Virus record (IMG/VR): IMGVR_UViG_2645727555_000021
Direction: 5' to 3' (one strand)
DNA: 8,729 bases
Source of the DNA: a virus
Lineage: Duplodnaviria > Heunggongvirae > Uroviricota > Caudoviricetes
Shown here: in pieces, positions 1 to 8,729 of the stretch
How the letters are laid out: every line of letters begins with the position of its first letter
Position numbering within the stretch: the stretch's first letter is position 1
Program-made: the position numbers and the translations under genes
The notes under the pieces: model-generated
What the model was told of the DNA's origin: nothing
Database searches by the model: none
The model's input: only the letters and a program-made list of their open reading frames with translations

Positions 1-118
1 CCATATAACCACCTGAAAGACAATGACATTGCCTGTTTTTATAACGGTAATTGCAGACCATGACAAGCCGCAGCCGTCAGGCTGCCTACTCGAATGTTTG
101 CCATTATTTTCTCCTGAA

Positions 119-144
119 CGCCCCTTATTCAGGGGCGTGTTTTT
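119..144 (+). terminator. Rho-independent terminator (plus-strand orientation)
   Basis: Seen in sequence: 8-bp GC-rich stem ACGCCCCT (119-126) / AGGGGCGT (131-138), loop TATT, followed by GTTTTT (139-144). Only frame 1 is open from the window start to a TGA at 61-63, so a plus-strand gene may end just upstream; 21 codons is too little to call it. Confidence 0.5.
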
Positions 145-251
145 GCCTTACTTCTGCTTTGTTTTTTTCTGTGCCTTTGAAGTGTTCGCGGCGATAGTTT
201 CACCTTCATCTACGTCAAGTGACGTTGGTGATACCGACACGTTCGCCACCA

Positions 252-1949
252 TCACTTTTTTTCGTTAACCTTGCCTGTCAGCATGTCGATAGCACCTTCT
301 TTGGCACGAGTCAGACGCAGGCGGGTGAAGTAGTTTTCACCGTTGCGAGGATGTACTTCGTTGATGGCACTGCCCCAGAGAGTGGTACGGTTAACGAGAG
401 ACGGATTGGTTTCGTGCACGTAAGGGATTGCTGGGACTGCATCACCAGCAATCAGACCGGCTTTACCGATGCCTTCGCCACGCCCATAGAAGAAGATGTC
501 ATCCAGCCCGAAGTCATATCCCTGTGCCTGGAATTGCTCACAGACAGGTTGCGGCACTTCGTAAATACGAATCGTGCCAAACAGGGTGCCGATGTACTGT
601 ACATACGGCGACTGAACGTAACCTGGTGCGATCTGGAAGTGCTGTGGAGGCAGAGAGCGCAGGAAGTTCGCGGCGTCACCACCAGCAAAGCCGCCACGAA
701 TACCCGTTGTCAGGGTACGATTTGCCATTTCTTGAGACAGAGCGTTTACTACGTGACGCAGGAGGCCGACCCAGGACTCATAGTTTTGAGCTTCCGGCAG
801 AGCCACATCAAATTCACGACCATAAACGGTATGGAATACCAGGGTGCGCAGACGCATGATGTCGGTTTCATGGGAGATCCAGTTACGCATCGCGGAGAAC
901 TGAAGTGCCGCTAATTCAAGGCCGTGCTCACGGCTTAAATCGGATGCGGACATTACCGTGTGTTCGGAAGCAATTACGTACTGGGACGGACGAACTTCGT
1001 ACTTACGCATAGCCTGGTTGATCACCGGAATCAGGCTTGGATTGCGCTCGATGTTAATTTCGACCTGAACAGCAATTTCAGTACCTTCTGGCGGAGCCTG
1101 GGTAAATGTAATGTCAATGACACCAGTGTCATAGGCAACTTTGGCAGTCGCTGAGAAAGCATTACCTTTGCTGTCTTTAGCATTGAAATAAAGGTTGCCA
1201 TCGCCGTCGTCAACTTTGGACGGTTTGCGGTTGATCAGCAGTTTGTTATAACCAGCGCGAAGCGGGCAGGATTGTCCCTCAAAATTTTTGATGTCGAACT
1301 GGAAGGTTTTGGTGCTGCCATCCCCTTTAGTGGAAAGGGTATACAGGCGCTTCATTTGAGAATAAACACCAGCTGACTGCATATTCAGTTCGTCACCTTG
1401 TTTGAAGGTGCCGAATTTTGTGCCTGCTACGTTGACCAGTTCATAAATATTTGACTCGTCACGATCACAAGGAACAAAAGTACAGGCATCACTGGTAGCA
1501 GCGCCCAGAGAGGCAGGCAGAATTAGAGCAGCATATTGAGCAACTTTCATTACGCCGTCAGAGCTACGCATTGATTGCGCGACAGACTCAAACATTGCCT
1601 TACCCGTGCCTTCATGGGTATCACTGGCACATTCAGTCATCAGGCGTTCAAGAGCCATGTGTGCGTTCGCCAGGATGTCACTTGCCGGGTAATGACCATG
1701 TTGACGTTTATACTCATGCAGAGACATAGCCCACCCACCAGTGATCTGACGAGCGACCTCTGGATTTACGCCTTCAAACATAGGCACTTTCTGGATTGCT
1801 TTATCCAGGTTTTCCATCATTACTGCCTGGTCAGCAATCATGTTGCCTGCTGCATCGGTGGTCGGATCGACGGTCATAGCCATGACGCTTGCCGCCCGAT
1901 TCATAATCTCGCGCTCGCGATCACGAGCTGGCTGAATGTTTTTATTCAC
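252..1949 (-). CDS. Hypothetical 565-aa protein, function unknown (possibly a virion structural protein; speculative)
   Basis: Long uninterrupted ORF with a GTG start at 1949 (translation begins NKNIQPA), with AGGG about 9 nt upstream. No Walker A, no transmembrane segment, no recognisable catalytic motif by eye. The antisense ORFs 219..914 and 428..859 have low-complexity, Arg/His/Cys-rich translations and are treated as shadows. Confidence 0.75.
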   Translation of the reverse strand: MNKNIQPARDREREIMNRAASVMAMTVDPTTDAAGNMIADQAVMMENLDKAIQKVPMFEGVNPEVARQITGGWAMSLHEYKRQHGHYPASDILANAHMALERLMTECASDTHEGTGKAMFESVAQSMRSSDGVMKVAQYAALILPASLGAATSDACTFVPCDRDESNIYELVNVAGTKFGTFKQGDELNMQSAGVYSQMKRLYTLSTKGDGSTKTFQFDIKNFEGQSCPLRAGYNKLLINRKPSKVDDGDGNLYFNAKDSKGNAFSATAKVAYDTGVIDITFTQAPPEGTEIAVQVEINIERNPSLIPVINQAMRKYEVRPSQYVIASEHTVMSASDLSREHGLELAALQFSAMRNWISHETDIMRLRTLVFHTVYGREFDVALPEAQNYESWVGLLRHVVNALSQEMANRTLTTGIRGGFAGGDAANFLRSLPPQHFQIAPGYVQSPYVQYIGTLFGTIRIYEVPQPVCEQFQAQGYDFGLDDIFFYGRGEGIGKAGLIAGDAVPAIPYVHETNPSLVNRTTLWGSAINEVHPRNGENYFTRLRLTRAKEGAIDMLTGKVNEKK

Positions 1950-2107
1950 GGTTAAGCCCTAAATTCGGGCGCGGCGTGAAGGTTCTTTTGACGGGCTAAC
2001 AATACCTACTTTGTGATTTAGTCAATAGGTTTAGTAAAATAAAATCTATTAACACACATGTTGTTATGTGATTTAATTTTAGTTTTCTAACACAAATCAT
2101 TAGAGTT
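1950..2107. promoter_or_regulatory. AT-rich divergent intergenic region; presumed promoters for the 565-aa gene (leftward) and the 2108-2975 cassette (rightward)
   Basis: 158-bp AT-rich spacer between two divergently oriented coding regions. No -35/-10 pair could be assigned confidently. Confidence 0.3.
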
Positions 2108-2500
2108 ATGGCGTATCGAATCTTTGTTTCGTATAAAAATGGCGCTAAGAGCCACTCTCTGAACACAACAAGTCGCTTTCTTGTTGAGGCGCAGTTGGCA
2201 TCAATTCTTGCCGAAAGTGAGATACTCTCGCTCGCTGAACGGATCGTTATCCAGTTTTCTGGTAGAGATATACTCAATGTCCCCGCCCTCACCCCGGCAT
2301 CCGAAGTTATGGAATCAATTAAATGGCCTGTATGCGGATGTCCTGCCAGGGTTGAAGAGCCGGTAACTGCAACGCTCTACATGCCGAAAGCTGTAAGAGA
2401 TTGGCTTGCTATGGTTGGCAATGGGAAAGTCAGTGCTGGACTTCGCAAGTTAATTGAAATGGCAGATATTCCTGAGTTAAAAAATGCATGGCGACAATGA
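2108..2500 (+). CDS. Hypothetical 130-aa protein with a C-terminal ribbon-helix-helix-like segment (putative DNA-binding regulator or antitoxin-like)
   Basis: ATG at 2108 with only a weak SD (GAG). The C-terminus TATLYMPKAVRDWLAMVGNGKVSAGLRKLIEMA fits a strand / helix / G-x-S turn / helix RHH pattern. The stop at 2498-2500 is 16 nt before the next gene start, suggesting an operon. The start codon is uncertain. Confidence 0.5.
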   Translation: MAYRIFVSYKNGAKSHSLNTTSRFLVEAQLASILAESEILSLAERIVIQFSGRDILNVPALTPASEVMESIKWPVCGCPARVEEPVTATLYMPKAVRDWLAMVGNGKVSAGLRKLIEMADIPELKNAWRQ

Positions 2501-2516
2501 GTAAACAAGGGACAAA

Positions 2517-2975
2517 ATGAGTCACGTTAACCCATCAAAAACACAATATCGCTTAATGCTGGCGATCGCGTCAGCTATACCAACCAGCCTGAATCCCCCG
2601 GCAGGCTATCCCGCTGTTGTTGATGATTGTTTTCAGTATTACGGAGAAGACATCCTGAGCCAGTCCAAAGCGCTCAAGCAGTTATGTAAGGCAGGTATTC
2701 TTCACTGTATCGGAGATCCGGACGATTTTGTTGTTATGCTGGCGGATCGTGACTCTTTTCTACTGTCCTGGAAAGCCGGTGCGCGCGAAGCACGTTTGGG
2801 GAATGGTATTGGTTACATAGACTATAGTGATTGTCCGCTGGCATTTGCTGGTGGATATATGCATTGGCATGAGCGAAATAGAGGCCGTCAGCGTCAGTAT
2901 CGCTTGAGTGACTTTAACGTCTGTCACGGTTTCGAAGAAGCTGACAGCCAGGACATCTGGCTTCAGGAGCCTTGA
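2517..2975 (+). CDS. Hypothetical 152-aa protein, function unknown
   Basis: ATG at 2517 preceded by AAGGGA 5 nt upstream. Soluble, with no transmembrane segment and no recognised motif; Cys/His-containing (CHG, HWHE). Its 3' end overlaps the convergent lipoprotein gene by 13 bp. Confidence 0.65.
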   Translation: MSHVNPSKTQYRLMLAIASAIPTSLNPPAGYPAVVDDCFQYYGEDILSQSKALKQLCKAGILHCIGDPDDFVVMLADRDSFLLSWKAGAREARLGNGIGYIDYSDCPLAFAGGYMHWHERNRGRQRQYRLSDFNVCHGFEEADSQDIWLQEP

Positions 2976-3295
2976 TCCCCCTTCCCTTCCCAAATCTCCC
3001 TGTTTCTTTGGTTATTCAGTGCGTTTCGTTGGTTGCATTCGTCGATCGTGCTGAATAACTGTTCAGCGTATGTCGGATACTTGTTTAACAGCACTGGCGT
3101 GTCCTCTGGCACTAAACAAGGGGAGTAATCAATCAGATTTGCCTGCGGCTTGCTGGTGGCTTCTACGGTAATTTTCACTGGCACGCTGGTTGATGGCTTT
3201 TGCCCGTTCCCGCTGCATCCTGATAACGTCATCAGGCACACGCACATCGTTAATCCCAGCACGGCGTAACGCATTTTCAAGGCGAGTGATTTCAT
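2963..3295 (-). CDS. Outer-membrane lipoprotein, o-spanin (Rz1)-like
   Basis: N-terminus MKSLALKMRYAVLGLTMCVCLMTLSGC is a lipoprotein signal peptide with lipobox LSGC; the mature part is Pro/Ser/Thr-rich with extra Cys. GAGAGGAAAG lies immediately upstream of the ATG at 3295. The gene starts inside the 3' end of the upstream Rz-like gene in a different frame (overlap 3129-3295), matching the overlapped spanin architecture known for P2 lysB/lysC. Confidence 0.5.
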   Translation of the reverse strand: MKSLALKMRYAVLGLTMCVCLMTLSGCSGNGQKPSTSVPVKITVEATSKPQANLIDYSPCLVPEDTPVLLNKYPTYAEQLFSTIDECNQRNALNNQRNREIWEGKGDQGS

Positions 3296-3587
3296 TCTGG
3301 CTTTCCTCTCGTTGTTTGATTAGGTTGGCATTCAGTTCTGCTGTTTTGCGCTGGTACTCCTTTTCCAGTGCTTTAATTCTTTCGTTTTCGGTCAGCATGG
3401 CTGAGCGAGCGTTCTCACTTAACTGTAATGCGGTAGAAAGCGTGTTGTTCGTGCTTTCCAGTTGTGATTTTGAGTCTTCAAGCGATCGGACATACCTGAT
3501 GTGTTCGATAACTGCCGTCGTTGTTCGGTAAATTCCAGAAATGGCTAAAAGCGCAATTACAATCAAAATTATCTTTTTCAAAACCAT
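3129..3587 (-). CDS. Bitopic inner-membrane coiled-coil protein, i-spanin (Rz)-like
   Basis: The ORF is open to 3602, but the ATG at 3585-3587 (MVLKKIILIVIALLAISG...) is directly preceded by GGAGAGG, whereas the ATG at 3602 has no SD. One N-terminal transmembrane helix, then a long charged coiled-coil-like region (EKEYQRKTAELNANLIKQREESQNEITRLENALRRAG). Its C-terminal region overlaps the lipoprotein gene. Confidence 0.55.
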   Translation of the reverse strand: MVLKKIILIVIALLAISGIYRTTTAVIEHIRYVRSLEDSKSQLESTNNTLSTALQLSENARSAMLTENERIKALEKEYQRKTAELNANLIKQREESQNEITRLENALRRAGINDVRVPDDVIRMQRERAKAINQRASENYRRSHQQAAGKSD

Positions 3588-3658
3588 CCTCTCCAGGTTC
3601 ATTTTTTGGTGTTAAACATGTACCAATTTACATCCTTTTGTGTGCCTAAGTGGTGCTT

Positions 3659-4465
3659 CTATGATTCCTTTTTGGTGTTCTTTTGGAGCGCATCGATAAC
3701 GCCTTGTGGCATGATTAAACTGATTGCCGGACTCATTACTGCATCATCCAGTAGAGAACCAGTTAACGTGATGGCGACAGCGTTCTCTAAACCTTTGGTT
3801 GCCTGAGTGGTTGACGTTTTAATGCGACCTGTAAGGGCTACGACACCCTCACTTGCTGAGTTAATTTCGGAGAGTAAAACTTCGGCGGCTGTCACTGCTT
3901 CCCGTAAAGCATCAATTTCATCCTGAGTAATGACTGGAGCCTGAGCGCCCCCAGCACCACCCTGTCCACCATTGCTTTCACCACCACCAGCACTTCCGGC
4001 AGCTTCAATTTTTGCGTTAATGGCGTTCATGGCGGTTTTCAGAGCATCAAGTTTTAGCGCCGTCAATGCGTCCGTTAGAGATTGCGGAATGGAAACATTC
4101 CCCATTCCCTCAACAAGGGCGAAAGCAGGTATGGGGGTCAGCTCGTTACCTTTTGCGTAGCATTCCCAGCCAATCTTCATCTGTAACAACTCTGATGGCT
4201 TGGTGTATGGGGAAAGAGAATCAGCCAGTAATGAAGACGCTTTGCTGGCCTCATTGAGCTGTTCAGAAAAGCCAAGCAATTGAGTAGTCCAGGCCGAAAC
4301 AGAATCAGGATAGGTTTTATCGGCGTGAACTATTCCCTGTATGGCGCTGGCGAGCGATGAGGCTTTTACAGAAGCTGCCCGGCTTATGGTTATAGATTCT
4401 GGTGTAGAGATACCGGCATCTGACAGAATTTTGAAGGCTTTAACTTCACCTATTGAATCAAGCAT
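3659..4465 (-). CDS. Hypothetical 268-aa Ala/Ser/Gly-rich soluble protein, translationally coupled to the PAAR-like gene
   Basis: The ORF extends upstream to 4564, but its in-frame ATG at 4463-4465 overlaps the PAAR stop (TAATG on the coding strand); the first 33 codons of the longer ORF are shadow of the PAAR gene. Contains a low-complexity linker AAGSAGGGESNGGQGGAGGAQAP between helical Ala-rich halves. No transmembrane segment and no catalytic motif seen. Confidence 0.65.
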   Translation of the reverse strand: MLDSIGEVKAFKILSDAGISTPESITISRAASVKASSLASAIQGIVHADKTYPDSVSAWTTQLLGFSEQLNEASKASSLLADSLSPYTKPSELLQMKIGWECYAKGNELTPIPAFALVEGMGNVSIPQSLTDALTALKLDALKTAMNAINAKIEAAGSAGGGESNGGQGGAGGAQAPVITQDEIDALREAVTAAEVLLSEINSASEGVVALTGRIKTSTTQATKGLENAVAITLTGSLLDDAVMSPAISLIMPQGVIDALQKNTKKES

Positions 4466-4749
4466 TATGCAACCTGAAAAATATCCTCGCCGTTGGCGAT
4501 AACAGAACCACAAGAAAGCGGATCGCCTACACAGACAACTCCCTTTCCACCTATCGAAAACCATACTCGCGTCGATACAGCTGCCCCTGGATGTGCACTG
4601 TTACCGTCAGTGTGACTGGGAAACATGGCACCATCTACAACAACTGGCTTACCGTTAACGGTGAACCAGGGAACGGTTTCTGCTACCAGTCGCGGCGGAA
4701 ATCCTCCGTGACCAGAACAAAGGGTGTCGCTGGTGGCTATTGCGCTCAT
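4465..4749 (-). CDS. PAAR-repeat-like protein (94 aa)
   Basis: ATG at 4747-4749 with AGGAGG 6 nt upstream. Translation shows three repeats of the PAAR type: LCSGHGG, WFTVNGKPVVVDGA and VWFSIGGKGVVCVGD. Size and repeat pattern match PAAR spike-tip proteins of T6SS and T4 gp5.4; assignment is by eye, not alignment. Confidence 0.6.
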   Translation of the reverse strand: MSAIATSDTLCSGHGGFPPRLVAETVPWFTVNGKPVVVDGAMFPSHTDGNSAHPGAAVSTRVWFSIGGKGVVCVGDPLSCGSVIANGEDIFQVA

Positions 4750-4834
4750 TCTTCACCTCCTGGTTATCCTCCTATTGTCATCACTTTGTTATTTCGTCAT
4801 TCAAACGGAGAGTTAAATTTCGGAATATTTTTGT

Positions 4835-4990
4835 ATTCTCAATTCATTCTCAAATAAATCTCACTATCAGACCATCATTCAGTGAGTGATTAAGATATTC
4901 TCAAAATAAACTCAACAAGCGCTCTTTTTTATCTCGTTTGGTGTGGATTTTTGGGTGCTTCTCTTTTAAAATTACATTTTAATTCTCAAA
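4835..4990. repeat. parC-like centromere/operator iterons upstream of parM
   Basis: Four exact copies of ATTCTCAA at 4835-4842, 4846-4853, 4897-4904 and 4982-4989. Degenerate copies sit 11 bp after the second and third (AAATCTCA at 4857, AAACTCAA at 4908), giving two phased runs of three with 11-bp spacing, as in R1 parC. The array lies in the divergent region between the PAAR-operon start and parM. Confidence 0.45.
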
Positions 4991-5015
4991 TGTGTCTCAG
5001 AAGTGGAGCAAGAAG

Positions 5016-5972
5016 ATGCGCATTTTTATCGATGATGGTTCAACCAATATCAAAATGCTGTGGGAGCACGACGGGGAAACTCGCACTCACATCAGCCCTA
5101 ACAGCTTTAAGCGCGGATGGTCAGCAACATTTGGTGCGGGCAAGCCGTTTAACTATGTCATTGACGACGAAAAGTATTCATACGACTTGATATCGCCAGA
5201 TGTTCTGCCGACGAATAATGTGGAATGGCAATACAGCCCGCTTAACGTCCTGGCTGTTCACCATGCCCTGCTGACAAGTGGCATTGAGCCGCAGGAAGTA
5301 GAAATTGTGGTCACGCTGCCTCTGGCGGAGTTTTACGACGACGACGCGCAATACAATCTCGATAACATCGAGCGCAAGAAAGCCAGTCTTATGCGCCCCG
5401 TCACGCTGAATAAAGGCAATGTGTTCACGATTAAGAAAGTTACGGTACGACCGGAGTCTATTCCGGCAGGAATTGGCCTGTGCGACAATCTGAACCCTGC
5501 CCATTCTGTTCTTATCGTCGATTTGGGTGGAACTACCCTTGATGTTTCAATGGTCGCCGGGCAAATGACGGCAGTTTCCCGTGTTTTTGGCGATTCGAAT
5601 CTTGGTGTATCACTGGTCACCAGGGAAGTAAGGCAAGCACTTGCAAGGGCCAATACCGAAACGTCAAATTACAATGTTGATCAGCTCATTATTAACCGCC
5701 ACGATGAAGATTATCTGAACGACAATATCAATGACCCATCAGCGATTGGTGATGTGAAAAAGGCCATTGCCGCAAGCATTGACCGTCTGCGTACCCGCGT
5801 TCTTGATGTGATTGGCGACTTTAAAGGATATACGCATGTCATGGTGATCGGTGGTGGCGCACCGCTGGTGGCAGATGCAATTCGCGAGCAAGTTAATATT
5901 CGTGATGACCGTTTCTTCGTGGCGGATGACCCGCAACTTGCTCTTGTTCATGGCCTGAAAGCAATCGGTTAA
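5016..5972 (+). CDS. parM: Type II partition actin-like ATPase ParM (StbA)
   Basis: The N-terminus MRIFIDDGSTNIKMLWEHDGETRTHISPNSFKRGW closely follows the R1 ParM N-terminus (MLVFIDDGSTNIK...HISPNSFKREW) as I recall it, and the motif NVLAVHHALLTSG is also shared. GGAG lies 7 nt before the ATG at 5016; the tracked ORF start at 4992 is a GTG extension without an SD. 318 aa. Confidence 0.9.
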   Translation: MRIFIDDGSTNIKMLWEHDGETRTHISPNSFKRGWSATFGAGKPFNYVIDDEKYSYDLISPDVLPTNNVEWQYSPLNVLAVHHALLTSGIEPQEVEIVVTLPLAEFYDDDAQYNLDNIERKKASLMRPVTLNKGNVFTIKKVTVRPESIPAGIGLCDNLNPAHSVLIVDLGGTTLDVSMVAGQMTAVSRVFGDSNLGVSLVTREVRQALARANTETSNYNVDQLIINRHDEDYLNDNINDPSAIGDVKKAIAASIDRLRTRVLDVIGDFKGYTHVMVIGGGAPLVADAIREQVNIRDDRFFVADDPQLALVHGLKAIG

Positions 5973-5979
5973 CGAGGTA

Positions 5980-6324
5980 ATGTCCATGTCTCAGGAACGT
6001 AAGAAAGTGATGATTTATCTTCGCCCAGAGGCTTATGCCAATGAAAAGGCGGCGAGCGAGAAGATAAAAAAACATAGCGATATGGCAAGAACCGCATTGT
6101 TGGCAGGGCTTGCGCTGGGAGAAGTCGATAGCAGGCTTCCAGGATTACTGGCTTCCCTGCTGACCGAAGACAATAACCCGGAGCTGATCCGAAAAATGCT
6201 GGCATCCTTCCTGGAACTACCAGCTGCGGTTGAGGAGCGCCCTGCCTCCATTGAGCCAGTGAAGGAGCAAGTTGTTGCCAAAAGCGCGTCGGCGCGCAAT
6301 CTGGCTGACTCTCTACCTGATTGA
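5980..6324 (+). CDS. parR: Type II partition adaptor ParR (StbB)-like DNA-binding protein
   Basis: It lies 8 nt after the parM stop, is of ParR size, and the segment ARTALLAGLALGE resembles RAALTAGLALY of R1 ParR from memory. The start may be the ATG at 5986 rather than 5980, because GAGG at 5974-5977 is better spaced for it. Confidence 0.75.
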   Translation: MSMSQERKKVMIYLRPEAYANEKAASEKIKKHSDMARTALLAGLALGEVDSRLPGLLASLLTEDNNPELIRKMLASFLELPAAVEERPASIEPVKEQVVAKSASARNLADSLPD

Positions 6325-6342
6325 CAGAAAATGTGCTGGTTT

Positions 6343-6367
6343 AAGGCTGCAAATTGCAGCCTTTTTT
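6343..6367 (+). terminator. Rho-independent terminator of the parMR operon
   Basis: Perfect 9-bp stem AAGGCTGCA (6343-6351) / TGCAGCCTT (6355-6363) with a 3-nt loop, running into a T-run that ends at 6367; it lies 19 nt after the parR stop. Confidence 0.7.
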
Positions 6368-6395
6368 ATGCCTTAATGGTGTCTAATTGGTGTTA

Positions 6396-6578
6396 ATCTG
6401 GAACCAGTTAGGTGCTGTTATGATGCAATTTTGTATCTGGTTCCAATTTGGGGCTGATTTCGTGTTAAATAGGATGCAATATAAGGTGTATTTGGTCTGA
6501 TTGATGTTATACTTTGCCAAACATTCATGACTCCATTATAGAGCCTGTCCCGCATCAAGAAGGCTCTTATCTGGAACC
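6396..6578. repeat. Repeated ATCTGG(A/T)(A/T)CC motifs upstream of parA; candidate partition site or operator
   Basis: ATCTGGAACC at 6396-6405 and 6569-6578, and ATCTGGTTCC at 6435-6444. Also ATGCAAT at 6423-6429 and 6474-6480, and AATGGTGT / AATTGGTGT at 6375-6390. The last copy sits in the leader between the putative promoter and the parA RBS. Confidence 0.4.
6505..6513 (+). promoter_or_regulatory. Putative extended -10 promoter for the parA operon
   Basis: TGtTATACT at 6505-6513 matches the extended -10 form TGnTATAAT. No good -35 is present. It lies about 100 nt upstream of the parA ATG. Prediction by eye only. Confidence 0.3.
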
Positions 6579-6611
6579 GTTTTGATACCAAAATCACACC
6601 GAGGAACGGAT

Positions 6612-7253
6612 ATGATTATATTGGTAGTCAGCCAAAAAGGTGGCTGTGGAAAATCAACCACAAGCGTAAACATCTGTGCGGAGCTTGCCCGCGCAAATAA
6701 GGATGTAGTGTTACTAGATGCAGACAAGCAAGGAACAGCTGCCCGCTGGGCAGCTGACCGTAACACGGCAGAGGTTTCTCCTGTTATTCATTGTGTCCAG
6801 AAGTTTGGTAATATTCGAGAAACACTTCTCGATCTGGATAAGCGTTATGAATTTGTTGTTGTTGATACAGCCGGGCGCGATAGCAAAGAGATGCGTACAG
6901 GCATAACCGCTGCAGATATTGTGTTGGTCCCATTCAGACCATCTCAACCAGATTTAGACACGCTGGCACACTTTGTTGAAGTGTTTGAAGAGGCTTTGGA
7001 CCTGATGCCTAATCCTAGCATTAAGGCGTTCGCAGTCTTAACAATGGCCCCATCCAATCCGGTTGTGAATGAAACCAATGAGGCCAAAGAGTACCTGGCT
7101 GAATATCCGCAACTGAAGTTGCTGAAAACCATCATTCGTGATCGTAAGGTTTACCGTGATTGCATGGCTGAAGGGAAGGGCGTTGTTGAGATGGACAACG
7201 GGAAAGCTAAAGGTGAAATCCAGATGTTGGTTAAGGAGTTATTAAGTGATTAA
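6612..7253 (+). CDS. parA: Type Ib partition ATPase, small ParA/ParF-like (213 aa)
   Basis: The N-terminus MIILVVSQKGGCGKSTT is the deviant Walker A (KGGxGKT/S) of ParA/MinD ATPases. The C-terminus (RKVYRDCMAEGKGVVEMDNGKAKGEIQMLVKELL) resembles ParF of TP228 from memory. GAGGAA lies 5 nt before the ATG at 6612; the tracked TTG start at 6582 is an unsupported extension. Confidence 0.85.
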   Translation: MIILVVSQKGGCGKSTTSVNICAELARANKDVVLLDADKQGTAARWAADRNTAEVSPVIHCVQKFGNIRETLLDLDKRYEFVVVDTAGRDSKEMRTGITAADIVLVPFRPSQPDLDTLAHFVEVFEEALDLMPNPSIKAFAVLTMAPSNPVVNETNEAKEYLAEYPQLKLLKTIIRDRKVYRDCMAEGKGVVEMDNGKAKGEIQMLVKELLSD

Positions 7254-7533
7254 GCCTCGTAAATCGGTAAAAGCCCCCGAAGTAAAAGACCCCGATCTTG
7301 AACGCCGAATTGAGGATTTTGCAAGTAAGGCTGATTTGGTGCCGGGTGAGCAACCAGAAGACAACAAAGTGCTCGATAAGGACGCTCCACGTGATTTTAA
7401 ATCTATTCGTGTTGGTTTCAATGAATACGAGTACCAGGTACTTGATGCGTTAAGTAAAAAGCATAATCGCAGCAAATTGAATATGATCCGCCATGCTATC
7501 CTCATGTTAGCGGAGTCTGAAGAAGCAAAATAA
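7246..7533 (+). CDS. ParG-like ribbon-helix-helix centromere-binding partner (95 aa)
   Basis: GTG start at 7246 with AAGGAG at 7233-7238, overlapping the parA stop by 8 nt. The C-terminus SIRVGFNEYEYQVLDALSKKHNRSKLNMIRHAILMLAE fits an RHH fold, and the N-terminus is charged and likely disordered, as in ParG. The only in-frame ATG is at codon 80. Confidence 0.6.
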   Translation: MIKPRKSVKAPEVKDPDLERRIEDFASKADLVPGEQPEDNKVLDKDAPRDFKSIRVGFNEYEYQVLDALSKKHNRSKLNMIRHAILMLAESEEAK

Positions 7534-7640
7534 AGTCTTTCAGGTTGGTTTTAGAACTTAAAAAGTCTTGAACCAAAGGTGCACCAATACACCACTAATT
7601 TGGTGTACCTTTACATCCTTTTTGGTTCCACTTGTGTACC
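7532..7640. repeat. Cluster of short repeats and a palindrome between parG-like and the glnS upstream region
   Basis: AAAGTCTT at 7532-7539 and 7562-7569; palindrome GGTGCACC at 7578-7585; GGTGTACC at 7602-7609 and TGTGTACC at 7633-7640; TGGTTCCA at 7623-7630, which echoes the ATCTGG(A/T)(A/T)CC motif upstream of parA. Confidence 0.3.
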
Positions 7641-7801
7641 ATTTTTCATTAATTTACTTATGCGCAAAAGTGGGCTTCATGAAAAAGCTCATTATTGAAA
7701 TAACGATAGAAAGCAATTTCTAATCAACTAGTGGTTGTCAGCCTATTCGGCTTATAAGATCATACGCTGTTATACGTTGTTTACGCTTTGAGGAATCCAC
7801 A

Positions 7802-8729
7802 ATGAGTGAGGCAGAAGCCCGCCCGACTAACTTTATTCGTCAGATCATCGATGAAGATCTGGCCAGTGGTAAGCACACCACAGTACATACCCGTTTCCCG
7901 CCGGAACCGAATGGCTATCTGCATATTGGTCATGCGAAATCTATCTGCCTGAACTTCGGGATCGCCCAGGACTATAAAGGCCAGTGCAACCTGCGTTTCG
8001 ACGACACTAACCCGGTAAAAGAAGATATCGAGTACGTCGAGTCGATTAAAAACGACGTTGAATGGTTAGGTTTTCACTGGTCTGGCAACATCCGTTACTC
8101 CTCCGATTATTTTGACAAACTCCATGCCTATGCTGTTGAACTGATCAACAAAGGACTGGCGTATGTTGACGAACTGACGCCGGAACAGATCCGCGAATAC
8201 CGCGGCACCCTGACGCAGCCGGGTAAAAACAGCCCGTACCGCGACCGCAGCGTTGAAGAGAACCTGGCGCTGTTCGAAAAAATGCGTGCCGGTGGTTTTG
8301 AAGAAGGTAAAGCCTGCCTGCGTGCGAAAATCGACATGGCTTCGCCGTTTATCGTGATGCGCGACCCGGTGCTGTACCGTATTAAGTTTGCTGAACACCA
8401 CCAGACTGGCAACAAGTGGTGCATCTACCCGATGTACGACTTCACCCACTGCATCAGCGATGCGCTGGAAGGTATTACGCACTCTCTGTGTACGCTTGAG
8501 TTCCAGGACAACCGTCGTCTGTATGACTGGGTACTGGACAACATCACCATTCCTGTTCATCCGCGCCAGTACGAATTCTCGCGCCTGAATCTGGAATACA
8601 CCGTGATGTCCAAGCGTAAGCTGAACCAGCTGGTAACCGACAAGCACGTTGAAGGCTGGGATGACCCGCGTATGCCGACCATTTCCGGTCTGCGTCGTCG
8701 TGGTTACACTGCTGCTTCTATTCGTGAGT
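7802..8729 (+). CDS. glnS: Glutaminyl-tRNA synthetase, N-terminal 309 codons (3' partial, continues beyond the window)
   Basis: The translation [53 protein letters not shown]... carries the class I HIGH motif (HIGH) and VMSKR (KMSK motif) and matches E. coli GlnRS from memory, with a few substitutions. GAGG lies about 8 nt before the ATG. The ORF track missed it because it runs off the window; the antisense ORFs 8066..8647 and 8128..8424 are shadows. Confidence 0.96.

Follow-up and report, generated by a model that had tools for sequence, protein, structure and literature searches.

Phased repeat arrays around the parA-orf61 operon of phage-plasmid D6 as probable sites of a type Ib partition system

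The repeats on the two sides of the parA-orf61 operon of phage-plasmid D6 are, in our judgment and with fairly high confidence, the cis-acting sites of a type Ib partition system made of a short ParA and a small ribbon-helix-helix protein. This reading draws on the arrays themselves, on how they are phased and conserved, on their exclusivity in D6, on the fact that they co-occur with the orf61 family, on the fold predicted for orf61, and on the plasmid context. The DNA analyzed here (the "window," 8,729 bp) matches D6 at 99% identity over 8.6 kb, spanning orf51 to orf62, and about 100 plasmids of 85 to 97 kb match it at the same identity; the window is phage-plasmid DNA and not a chromosomal island. 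Of the three options offered by an earlier sequence-only reading for sites on both sides of the operon, a split centromere and/or a second operator is favored, and an element boundary or attachment site is not.

Degenerate units in an 11-bp register

The most conspicuous repeat words were already picked out in that reading. ATCTGG(A/T)(A/T)CC, said to occur three times upstream of parA, has exactly three copies in the window, at 6396, 6435, and 6569, each of them indeed upstream of parA (0.06 expected; three reached in 0/200 shuffles). The downstream words, including those of the GGTG(C/T)ACC type, exist as well and by themselves are only weakly significant: GGTGYACC at 7578 and 7602 (0.41 expected) was equaled in 5/200 shuffles, the copy at 7578 being a palindrome and thus counted on both strands, and TGGWWCCA at 6399, 6438, and 7623 (0.6 expected) reached three copies in 11/200. 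Taken together, the upstream and downstream repeats are far above chance.

These words are the most visible members of degenerate units that recur in an 11-bp phase, each an A/T-rich spacer followed by a GGTRCC-like box. Boxes in the D6 variant are degenerate, with many unit scores under 6 bits and a few below zero, and the simple words GRYRYC, GGYRYC, GGNNCC, and KRYRYC failed to capture the arrays; an 11-mer weight matrix was therefore used instead, trained on relatives only, with the window left out. The box is nearly palindromic, so the orientation of a unit is not assignable. At a threshold of at least 4 bits, the matrix finds 12 matches upstream (6365 to 6611) versus 1.9 ± 1.3 in composition-matched shuffles, and 7 downstream (7534 to 7660) versus 0.84 ± 0.87. 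Pairs of matches separated by multiples of 11 bp number 13 upstream versus 0.16 in shuffles and 10 downstream versus 0.03, and neither the match counts nor the phasing was reached by any of 5,000 shuffles on either side. All the words listed in the earlier reading are themselves matrix matches, both upstream (AATCTGGAACC at 6395, TATCTGGTTCC at 6434, and TATCTGGAACC at 6568) and downstream (AAAGGTGCACC at 7575, TTTGGTGTACC at 7599, TTTTTGGTTCC at 7619, and ACTTGTGTACC at 7630).

Table 1. Features of the D6 par region and its surroundings, in window coordinates
Feature	Position	Strand	Description
Array D	3603..3679	+	7 units in exact 11-bp register, ~2.7 kb from the par operon; proposed extra site
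Intrinsic terminator of the parM-stbB (type II) operon	6343..6363	+	9-pair stem AAGGCTGCAA/TTGCAGCCTT, then TTTTAT
Array A	6362..6504	+	~13 repeating 11-bp units ahead of the par promoter; proposed main centromere-like site
Putative extended -10 of the parA operon	6505..6513	+	TGTTATACT, read from the sequence
Array B	6524..6600	+	seven 11-bp units within the 5' leader; proposed autoregulation operator
parA (D6 orf60)	6612..7253	+	213-aa Walker-type ATPase, short (type Ib)
orf61, centromere-binding-protein candidate	7246..7533	+	95 aa; annotated hypothetical in D6
Array C	7564..7640	+	core made up of seven 11-bp units, downstream of orf61; proposed second centromere-like site
Conserved hairpin	7575..7612	+	arms 7575-7587 and 7600-7612, 12-nt loop; two inverted boxes; U-rich tail after
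glnS cassette, host-derived, D6-borne	7714..8729	+	chromosomal matches at 94-95% identity

When a phased-array score was run over all 91,159 bp of D6 (genome mean, -84; standard deviation, 20), exactly four outliers emerged, at 23 to 44 bits, with the next best at about 3 bits, and three of the four flank or lead the par operon (Table 1). Array A has the top score of the whole genome (42 to 44 bits), with matrix matches at 6362, 6373, 6384, 6395, 6406, 6417, 6427, and 6434; it includes ATCTGGAACC (6396) and ATCTGGTTCC (6435), and a 6-bp shift in phase follows its seventh unit. Array B, which ranks second or third depending on the strand (24.5 to 26.5 bits), has matches at 6535, 6568, and 6579, holds the third ATCTGGAACC (6569), and stops directly at the Shine-Dalgarno sequence GAGG. 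Array C is an outlier on both strands (23 to 24 bits), with matches at 7564, 7575, 7597/7599, 7619, and 7630; it takes in the downstream words GGTGCACC, GGTGTACC, and TGGTTCCA, and weaker units stretch it to about 7542 to 7651. Array C is a short one, and some of its signal is contributed by a hairpin for which a terminator alone could be explanation enough. Array D ranks second or fourth, again by strand (22.9 to 27.7 bits), and lies between orf56, an upfB-like gene whose 3' end is overlapped by the last two units, and orf55, an Rz-like spanin gene by its PHROGs assignment. Array D is in register in three divergent D6-like plasmids, and we propose that it would be an extra binding site, either centromere or operator.

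Among relatives, the register is retained more faithfully than the letters. Array A units are in register in nine D6-like sequences despite their divergence, and in D6-like relatives with a parA region just 78 to 82% identical, unit sequences change while the register is kept. In the register of array B, relatives have clearer boxes (for example, GTTATTGCACC, GAAACGGTACC, and AAAGCAGCACC in lineage L007), and array C is nearer to consensus in L005 and L006. The 180-bp stretch containing array C is confined to D6-like plasmids (98 records); D6-like plasmids without glnS have a different array there, of 10 to 11 boxes, which begins right after the stop codon of the small gene and is followed by a separate canonical terminator.

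Farther afield, the boxes recur in other Gammaproteobacteria. We compared 15 homologous loci in which parA is paired with a gene for a centromere-binding protein (CBP). At several of them, namely, those of Serratia, Rahnella, Chimaeribacter, and an uncultured gammaproteobacterium, this box type flanks the operon on its two sides amid unrelated genes, as it does on two plasmids, that of Chimaeribacter and Kacie_13. At the Kushneria and Hahella loci, boxes are clear only downstream. Some distant family members have few matrix matches, on both sides at L022, L025, and L028 and upstream at L023 and L026; such sparse loci would reflect either a differing specificity or dual arrays that are not universal in the family. 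The earlier suggestion that the two repeat blocks are akin and go with the parA/small-protein operon is supported.

The operon, its proteins, and a proposed mechanism

D6 ParA, an ATPase of the deviant Walker A kind, begins directly at its P-loop (MIILVVSQKGGCGKST), without the N-terminal DNA-binding extension of type Ia proteins, and matches the Pfam families AAA_31, CbiA, MipZ, and VirC1. Its nearest solved relatives are TP228 ParF (4dzz; E value, 1e-18) and 5u1g, deposited as "ParA" (E value, 1.2e-18), and it is 43% identical over its full length to a pB171-type ParA and 44.5% identical to a pESBL-type ParA. The GTG start of orf61 overlaps the end of parA by 8 nt. Judged from its sequence, the D6 parA-orf61 pair has the features of a type Ib system, that is, a short ParA, a small downstream protein, and adjoining repeat arrays.

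For the product of orf61, a ribbon-helix-helix protein is predicted: a basic N terminus, a helix, and a linker precede the C-terminal ribbon-helix-helix domain. An AlphaFold2 model built from a 60-sequence alignment (pLDDT, 85) places a strand at residues 52 to 57, in the predicted beta strand KSIRVGF, and helices at 60 to 73 and 77 to 91, with pLDDT above 90 over residues 41 to 90; the model from nine close sequences was poor (pLDDT, 58). The best Foldseek matches in the PDB are nearly all ribbon-helix-helix proteins (CopG, CopA_SO, ParG 1p94, and Arc), with weak E values. No Pfam model matches D6 orf61 itself, and 19/60 members of its family match RHH_1 or NikA-like models; against PHROGs, orf61 matches an "Arc-like repressor" (E value, 1.8e-4). 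Searches of solved structures with the single sequence or a shallow profile returned nothing significant, and a deeper profile gave only weak CopG matches (E value, 0.16). A word-indexed protein search found close relatives only, and the family as a whole comprises about 124 clusters at 50% identity. The description of this gene as parG-like holds for the predicted fold and role and fails for the sequence family, since searches with orf61 detected no sequence similarity to ParG.

Two elements at the upstream edge frame the proposed transcription unit. The parM-stbB and parA-orf61 operons are codirectional, and the terminator that parts them is kept in all D6-like relatives. Beyond array A lies the motif TGnTATACT (TGTTATAGT in L005), which sits equally far from the ATG in each of the nine D6-like sequences and is putatively the promoter element of the parA operon; it has no recognizable -35 and was not listed by a consensus promoter scan in which a -35 hexamer was required.

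In our proposed mechanism, orf61 dimers would bind cooperatively to the GGTRCC-like boxes, which lie one helical turn (11 bp) apart. Arrays A and C would act as two centromere-like sites, like parC1 and parC2 of pB171, and would load the ParA-stimulating complexes that drive nucleoid-based positioning of the plasmid. Array B, which lies between the extended -10 element and the ribosome-binding site, would double as an operator for autorepression, and array D, near the spanin genes, may be a further binding site. Finally, two inverted boxes within array C would pair in the RNA as a hairpin stem, the probable end of the par transcript.

We also speculate, as a rather doubtful extension by analogy with the omega protein of pSM19035, that orf61 could be a multisite regulator of the D6 prophage and not solely a partition adaptor. 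Four arrays are conserved, one of them immediately upstream of the Rz/Rz1-like spanin genes and another with boxes that are at the same time the stem of the probable par terminator. If orf61 were such a regulator, its binding there would couple partition to control of a lysis gene transcript and to read-through into the cargo gene glnS.

Terminator, glnS, and iteron explanations

The strongest rival holds that the downstream block is nothing but the terminator or 3'-end hairpin of the par operon, that its likeness to the boxes is incidental, and that D6 has a single upstream centromere. The hairpin itself is conserved. Its stem consists of the two GGTG(C/T)ACC copies inside array C, all 13 pairs are formed in 100% of cells in six sequences, and three pairs show compensatory double changes, all of them from the single lineage L007. 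G-U wobbles are compatible with plus-strand RNA only, the RNA fold z-score is -1.96, a U-rich tail follows the stem, and clear terminator hairpins made of inverted boxes occur at the equivalent place in other family members. A search of Rfam with 6200 to 7900 recovered no RNA family, the sole match being a chance microRNA (E value, 0.97), and the window as a whole has no tRNAs. We think the structure is probably a terminator or 3'-end structure of the par mRNA. As the whole explanation, however, the hairpin is unlikely. Boxes in the 11-bp register extend beyond it on both sides (7564, 7619, and 7630), its loop in L005 and L006 holds a good box (AATGTAGCACC), the region is among the genome-wide phased-array outliers on both strands, and the plasmids without glnS have their boxes and their terminator as separate elements. 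The terminator and binding-site roles of array C are compatible and not mutually exclusive.

A second set of explanations turns on the neighboring gene. The glnS cassette has 89 bp of DNA native to the region before the gene, including a promoter-like site (TTGTCA-17-GATCAT at 7735 to 7763), and then glnS from its ATG at 7803. On its 3' side in D6 lie a methylase gene, rdgC, and tail genes; glnS is an internal cargo gene. One rival reading takes the downstream repeats for what is left of an element boundary or attachment site, created when a mobile element inserted beside the chromosomal glnS. The adjacency of glnS and the presence of an inverted repeat are all that speaks for this, and we consider it very improbable: the window lies inside the circular 91-kb genome of D6, phage genes go on past glnS, there is no integrase nearby, the junction with host DNA lies at about 7714 (70 bp past the repeats), and box arrays are present in D6-like plasmids that have no glnS.

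Could the boxes instead be iterons or copy control sites for the RepA-like protein of D6? Iterons can form several arrays, and the RepA iteron begins with GGTGTA and is the fifth-best, very weak, hit of the phased score. Nevertheless, the iterons of D6 are 22 bp long (GGTGTAAGATTTGCCCTCAAAA), well conserved, and spaced at 22 to 23 bp, as opposed to degenerate 11-bp units, and they flank orf42, 12 kb away; moreover, the boxes accompany parA-CBP pairs also where the replicon has a different Rep type. We give this explanation very little weight.

The least probable reading, to the point of being negligible, is that the repeats, which sit between the small par gene and glnS, are regulatory DNA of the native glnS promoter region carried along with the gene, in which case, as the earlier reading pointed out, they should be conserved upstream of glnS in genomes lacking the element; they are not. 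A query of 7500 to 8100 was matched by 5,425/5,426 complete Escherichia coli genomes, and in all 29 chromosomal matches sampled across the ranking, similarity begins at query position 215 or 227 (window 7714 or 7726) and none starts further upstream. Pairwise alignment with the nagE-glnS region agrees on a start near 7714 to 7726 and places the 3' end of nagE plus unrelated DNA opposite 7534 to 7713, with no counterpart of the 7564-to-7640 repeats upstream of the native chromosomal glnS. The glnS cassette lies outside the par system and marks where par-specific DNA ends.

Significance and comparison with known partition systems

In total, these observations give a likely function to orf60 and orf61, D6 genes whose annotation is poor ("possible ParA" and "hypothetical," respectively), and define the likely centromere boxes of a phage-plasmid family that is widespread in E. 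coli, Salmonella, and Shigella. Such a definition should help in predicting incompatibility and in the engineering of vectors of the D6 type. The analysis also corrects the impression of a chromosomal island next to glnS and defines a family of some 124 sequence clusters of predicted small ribbon-helix-helix partition proteins. Dual flanking arrays, furthermore, are the norm among characterized relatives of D6 ParA. The expectation that type Ib centromeres usually lie upstream only does not hold for pB171, pSM19035, and pESBL, each of which has repeat arrays both upstream and downstream according to PMC7602700.

With pB171, D6 shares the adjacency of a type II and a type Ib system, the latter flanked by arrays on both sides, and upstream arrays that straddle the promoter (arrays A and B in D6); array C would be the analogue of parC2. 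We take our locus L013 to be a double par locus of the pB171 type, from its architecture and protein sizes; D6 ParA, ParM, and ParR are 43%, 43%, and 32% identical to its products. The two operons of D6 are in tandem with a terminator between them, whereas those of pB171 diverge around a shared parC1, as do par1 and par2 at L013 in their arrangement. The (T)TCTCA boxes of the D6 type II system are its own and lie upstream of parM. The type Ib boxes of D6 are GGTRCC-like at 11 bp, against what appear by eye to be TCAYA-type hexamers at L013. D6 also differs in having a fourth, remote array. By hhalign, orf61 is not alignable with the pB171-type ParB (probability, 0.6%; the alignment stops after the first 26 residues), and the orf61 family has no detectable sequence similarity to it. 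In pB171, parC1 and parC2 have been used as separate elements (PMC4270457).

The IncI1 plasmid pESBL likewise combines a short ParA, a ParB of about 100 aa without a recognizable motif, and arrays on both sides, and its upstream and downstream repeats, direct and inverted, bind ParB in electrophoretic mobility shift assays, as reported in PMC7602700. At a pESBL-type locus (L012), GATAACAA octamers lie on both sides of the operon. These units are contiguous 8-bp repeats, unlike the 11-bp units with spacers of D6; the orf61 family has no detectable sequence similarity to the pESBL-type ParB; and pESBL is a conjugative plasmid, whereas D6 is a phage-plasmid.

TP228 offers a structural parallel, in that ParF is tied with 5u1g as the nearest solved relative of D6 ParA and ParG, a ribbon-helix-helix protein with a flexible N-terminal tail, is among the fold matches of orf61. 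Its centromere, parH, is known from upstream only and is built of ACTC tetramers; the D6 boxes are GGTRCC-like and lie on both sides of the operon. PMC3130281 describes parH as a single site of about 100 bp with degenerate short boxes and AT-rich spacers.

Finally, the delta/omega system of pSM19035 resembles that of D6 in using a ribbon-helix-helix centromere-binding protein on short repeats at several separate sites, and the omega sites are also operators of several promoters. This arrangement sets a precedent for having more than two arrays and for giving them a regulatory role, even though pSM19035 is a Gram-positive plasmid with 7-bp heptads and an unrelated protein sequence; its multiple arrays are noted in PMC7602700. 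Set beside these systems, the D6 arrays look like ordinary flanking binding-site arrays of a plasmid partition system and would leave the current understanding of partition mechanisms unchanged.

The repeat unit and its arrays

The short repeats on both sides of the parA operon are best read, from their sequence and spacing, as putative dual centromere and operator arrays of that operon. A sequence-only reading had taken them for related sites of the par operon, and this part stands; its account of the genomic setting and of the rarity of two-sided sites does not. The three words it reported do lie where it placed them. The window contains three copies of ATCTGGWWCC, all upstream of parA (0.06 expected; 0 of 200 shuffles reach three), and TGGWWCCA (three occurrences) and GGTGYACC (two sites) are each only weakly unusual alone. 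Together they form only a small part of a broader pattern. When the intergenic regions are compared with those of plasmids resembling Escherichia phage D6 (par region 95%, 93%, 82%, 78-79%, and ~80% identical) and of two plasmids from other genera, the repeat unit proves to be 11 bp: ~5 A/T-rich bases and then a six-base box near GGTRCC, with variants that include GGTGTC, GGCACC, GATGCC, and AGCACC.

An 11-mer weight matrix, built by expectation-maximization on the relatives only (i.e., with the window excluded), matches upstream at 6351, 6362, 6373, 6384, 6395, 6406, 6417, and 6427, at 6434 after a phase shift, and then at 6535, 6568, and 6579; downstream, it matches at 7564, 7575, 7597/7599, 7619, and 7630. 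Every word of the earlier reading is one matrix unit. At 4 bits or more, the upstream region gives 12 matches (shuffle mean, 1.9) with 13 in-phase pairs (0.16), and the downstream region 7 matches (0.84) with 10 in-phase pairs (0.03); none of 5,000 composition-matched shuffles equals any of these counts. The first ATCTGGAACC is simply a degenerate box, since close relatives have ATCTGGCACC or ATCTGGCGCC there.

Features of the window, with phased scores of the 11-bp arrays in bits
Feature	Position	Strand	Remarks
Major capsid protein	252-1949	minus	
Two small genes	between capsid and spanin genes		function unassigned
Rz1-like spanin (D6 orf54)	2963-3295	minus	matches Rz-like spanin families; annotated hypothetical
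Rz-like spanin (D6 orf55)	3129-3602	minus	matches Rz-like spanin families; annotated hypothetical
Array D (remote)	3603-3679 (D6 position 55738)		23-28 bits
upfB-like gene, PAAR protein	beyond spanin genes	minus	
(T)TCTCA box clusters	4835-4863, 4897-4914, 4982-4999		upstream of parM
ParM/StbA	4992-5972		
ParR/StbB-like protein	5980-6324		
parM-stbB operon terminator	6343-6363		
Array A (upstream)	6362-6504		~13 units in register; 42-44 bits
TGnTATACT element	6505-6513		conserved
Array B (5' leader)	6524-6600		7 units; ends exactly at Shine-Dalgarno sequence; 24.5-26.5 bits
ParA, 213 aa (D6 orf60)	6612-7253		annotated "possible ParA"
95-aa protein (D6 orf61)	7246-7533		annotated "hypothetical"
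Array C (downstream)	core 7564-7640; weaker units to ~7542-7651		7 core units, after 95-aa gene's stop codon; 23-24 bits
Hairpin arms	7575-7587, 7600-7612		the GGTG(C/T)ACC copies
Phage-borne glnS segment	7714-8729		includes 89 bp native upstream DNA; glnS from 7803

Even where a relative's intergenic DNA barely aligns, its units keep their phase with the terminator, the -10 element, and the start codon; on these alignments, a register kept despite such divergence bears the mark of selection acting on binding sites at set distances, not on the sequence as such. The TGnTATACT element is a putative extended -10 promoter, which a consensus promoter scan requiring a -35 did not report. The 95-aa gene has a GTG start and shares its first 8 nt with the end of parA (7246-7253), an arrangement that suggests that translation of the two partition proteins is coupled.

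How specific is this pattern? With every position of the whole D6 genome (91,159 bp) scored for six consecutive in-phase units, exactly four outliers appear on both strands, namely, arrays A to D; the next best signal is ~3 bits, and all else falls below -7 (genome mean, -84; sd, 20). That ~3-bit signal is the RepA iterons. Could the boxes themselves be iterons? This is ruled out, as the RepA iterons lie 12 kb away and are well-conserved 22-bp units whose sequence is quite different. These iterons (GGTGTAAGATTTGCCCTCAAAA) flank the RepA-like gene orf42 of D6 (D6 45698-45821 and 46056-46892): five precede the gene, spaced by 22-23 bp except for 32 bp after the first; one lies inside the gene; and more copies follow it, some inverted. 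The layout is similar to incC/incA of P1.

Array D consists of seven units in exact 11-bp register (TTTTTGGTGTT AAACATGTACC AATTTACATCC TTTTGTGTGCC TAAGTGGTGCT TCTATGATTCC TTTTTGGTGTT) between the upfB-like and Rz-like spanin genes, ~2.7 kb from the par operon. The last codons of the upfB-like gene overlap two units, and the register is kept in three divergent D6-like plasmids. The adjoining orf55 combines an N-terminal membrane segment with a coiled coil, and orf54, which overlaps its end, carries a lipoprotein signal (LSGC); the two resemble an i-spanin/o-spanin pair. In plasmid pAPEC201603 (4090-5303 of locus L001), ORF6N-domain antirepressor-like and icd-like genes lie opposite window ~2100-3600, where the window has other small genes, so the capsid-to-spanin region is variable among D6-like elements.

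glnS and the downstream block

D6 is a P1-like phage that is maintained as a circular plasmid. Window 87-8729 is 99.0% identical to it (MF356679), and 6300-7800 also matches ~100 non-mobilizable plasmids of 85-97 kb in E. coli, Salmonella, and Shigella. The view that the repeats belong to an element beside a chromosomal glnS is therefore wrong: in D6 and its relatives, a methylase gene, rdgC, and tail genes come after glnS, which is thus phage-plasmid cargo, not chromosome beside an inserted element, as already noted (PMC6799933).

Are the downstream repeats host regulatory sequence that lies upstream of native glnS? They are absent there. The phage-borne glnS segment is 94-95% identical to chromosomal glnS, and query 7500-8100 has matches in 5,425 of 5,426 complete E. 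coli genomes; in all 29 matches sampled across the ranking, chromosomal similarity starts at 7714 or 7726. Opposite 7534-7713, direct alignment places the end of nagE and unrelated DNA, and these 180 bp are confined to D6-like plasmids. A published survey found glnS in all D6-like genomes; in contrast, three D6-like plasmids here (L003, L008, and L009) are without it. Their breakpoint coincides with the small par gene's stop codon, and 4 bases past that codon they carry a different array of 10-11 boxes, followed by a canonical terminator. Since glnS-less plasmids also have one, a downstream array goes with the par operon itself, irrespective of what adjoins it.

The downstream block probably has two roles, one within the box array and one at the 3' end of the par transcript as its hairpin, because its arms are boxes, their pairing is conserved, a U-rich tail follows the stem, and relatives have terminators with box stems. 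All 13 of 13 pairs are standard across six sequences from three lineages; three pairs show compensatory double changes, all from the E. fergusonii plasmid L007, and single-sided changes are G-U wobbles compatible only with plus-strand RNA. In several distant family members, obvious terminators at the corresponding place have stems made of two inverted boxes (e.g., AAAAAGCACC-TGAAC-GGTGCTTTTT in L021). With 12 nt, the loop of the 7575-7612 hairpin is long; its fold z-score reaches only -1.96, and a terminator scan did not list it. Boxes that double as a terminator stem and an array beside spanin genes are the parts that might repay work.

The partition proteins and their relatives

ParA is a short Walker ATPase, with ParF of TP228 and 5u1g (deposited as "ParA") as its closest solved relatives (both ~E 1e-18). 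The 95-aa protein has no Pfam match of its own. An AlphaFold2 model from a 60-sequence alignment (pLDDT 85) predicts a helix and a flexible linker, followed by a strand-helix-helix module that spans residues 52-91. Nearly all Foldseek matches in the PDB are ribbon-helix-helix proteins (including CopG, CopA_SO, ParG, TacA1, NikA, and Arc), with target-normalized TM-scores up to 0.8 and weak E-values, as expected for a domain of 40 residues. Pfam RHH_1 or NikA-like is matched by 19 of 60 family members, and the D6 protein matches the PHROG "Arc-like repressor" (E 1.8e-4). On this combination of fold model and matches, we accept the 95-aa protein as the candidate centromere-binding protein of a type Ib system, with binding inferred.

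Its profile gathers 124 clusters (50% identity) with members of ~85-100 aa, which share a basic N terminus (MVKRR), a helix (IExFAxxAD), a variable linker, and a conserved C-terminal module (FKxIRVPFNEYEY...GRSKLNxIR). The basic N terminus may be a peptide that stimulates the ParA ATPase. In D6 it reads MIKPRK (window 7246-7290, family alignment); the unrelated pB171-type ParB also starts with MVKKP.

Among fifteen loci encoding relatives of this protein (in Sodalis, Serratia, Rahnella, Chimaeribacter, Kushneria, Hahella, and uncultured bacteria), a short parA lies immediately upstream of the small gene in 14, the exception being a truncated contig. In several, units of an A/T spacer plus a GGTACC/GGCACC-type box flank the operon on both sides at 11-bp spacing. 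Within 300 bp, matches scoring 6 bits or more (background, ~2 per 300 bp) number 15 upstream and 16 downstream in L021, 16 and 9 in L016, 8 and 15 in L024, and 7 and 8 in L029; enrichment is clear only downstream in L023 (Kushneria; 0 and 10) and L026 (Hahella; 2 and 7). L022, L025, and L028 have few on either side, so either the specificity has drifted or not every family member has this layout.

Comparison with known partition loci

Type Ib centromeres had been taken to lie usually upstream only. This fails for the nearest relatives, as PMC7602700 describes arrays both upstream and downstream in pESBL, pB171, and pSM19035. A pESBL-type locus has a ParA 44.5% identical to that of D6 and GATAACAA octamers on both sides. 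The D6 proteins share 43% (ParA), 43% (ParM), and 32% (ParR) identity with their counterparts in an IncF plasmid whose divergent parMR/parAB architecture is pB171 type; given these identities and the two-sided arrays, the D6 locus is related to the pB171 double par locus. There are also differences. The operons are divergent in the pB171 type, whereas in D6 they are in tandem, with a terminator between them as insulation. Upstream of parM, the D6 type II system has separate (T)TCTCA boxes, spaced 11 bp apart and conserved in relatives, which are probably the parC site of StbA/StbB; being distinct from the GGTRCC-type boxes, they point to separate sites for the two partition systems. The small proteins of the pB171 and pESBL types are not alignable with that of D6; the box sequence differs; and D6 has a fourth, remote array. 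The D6 par locus is a further example of an already known type of partition system.
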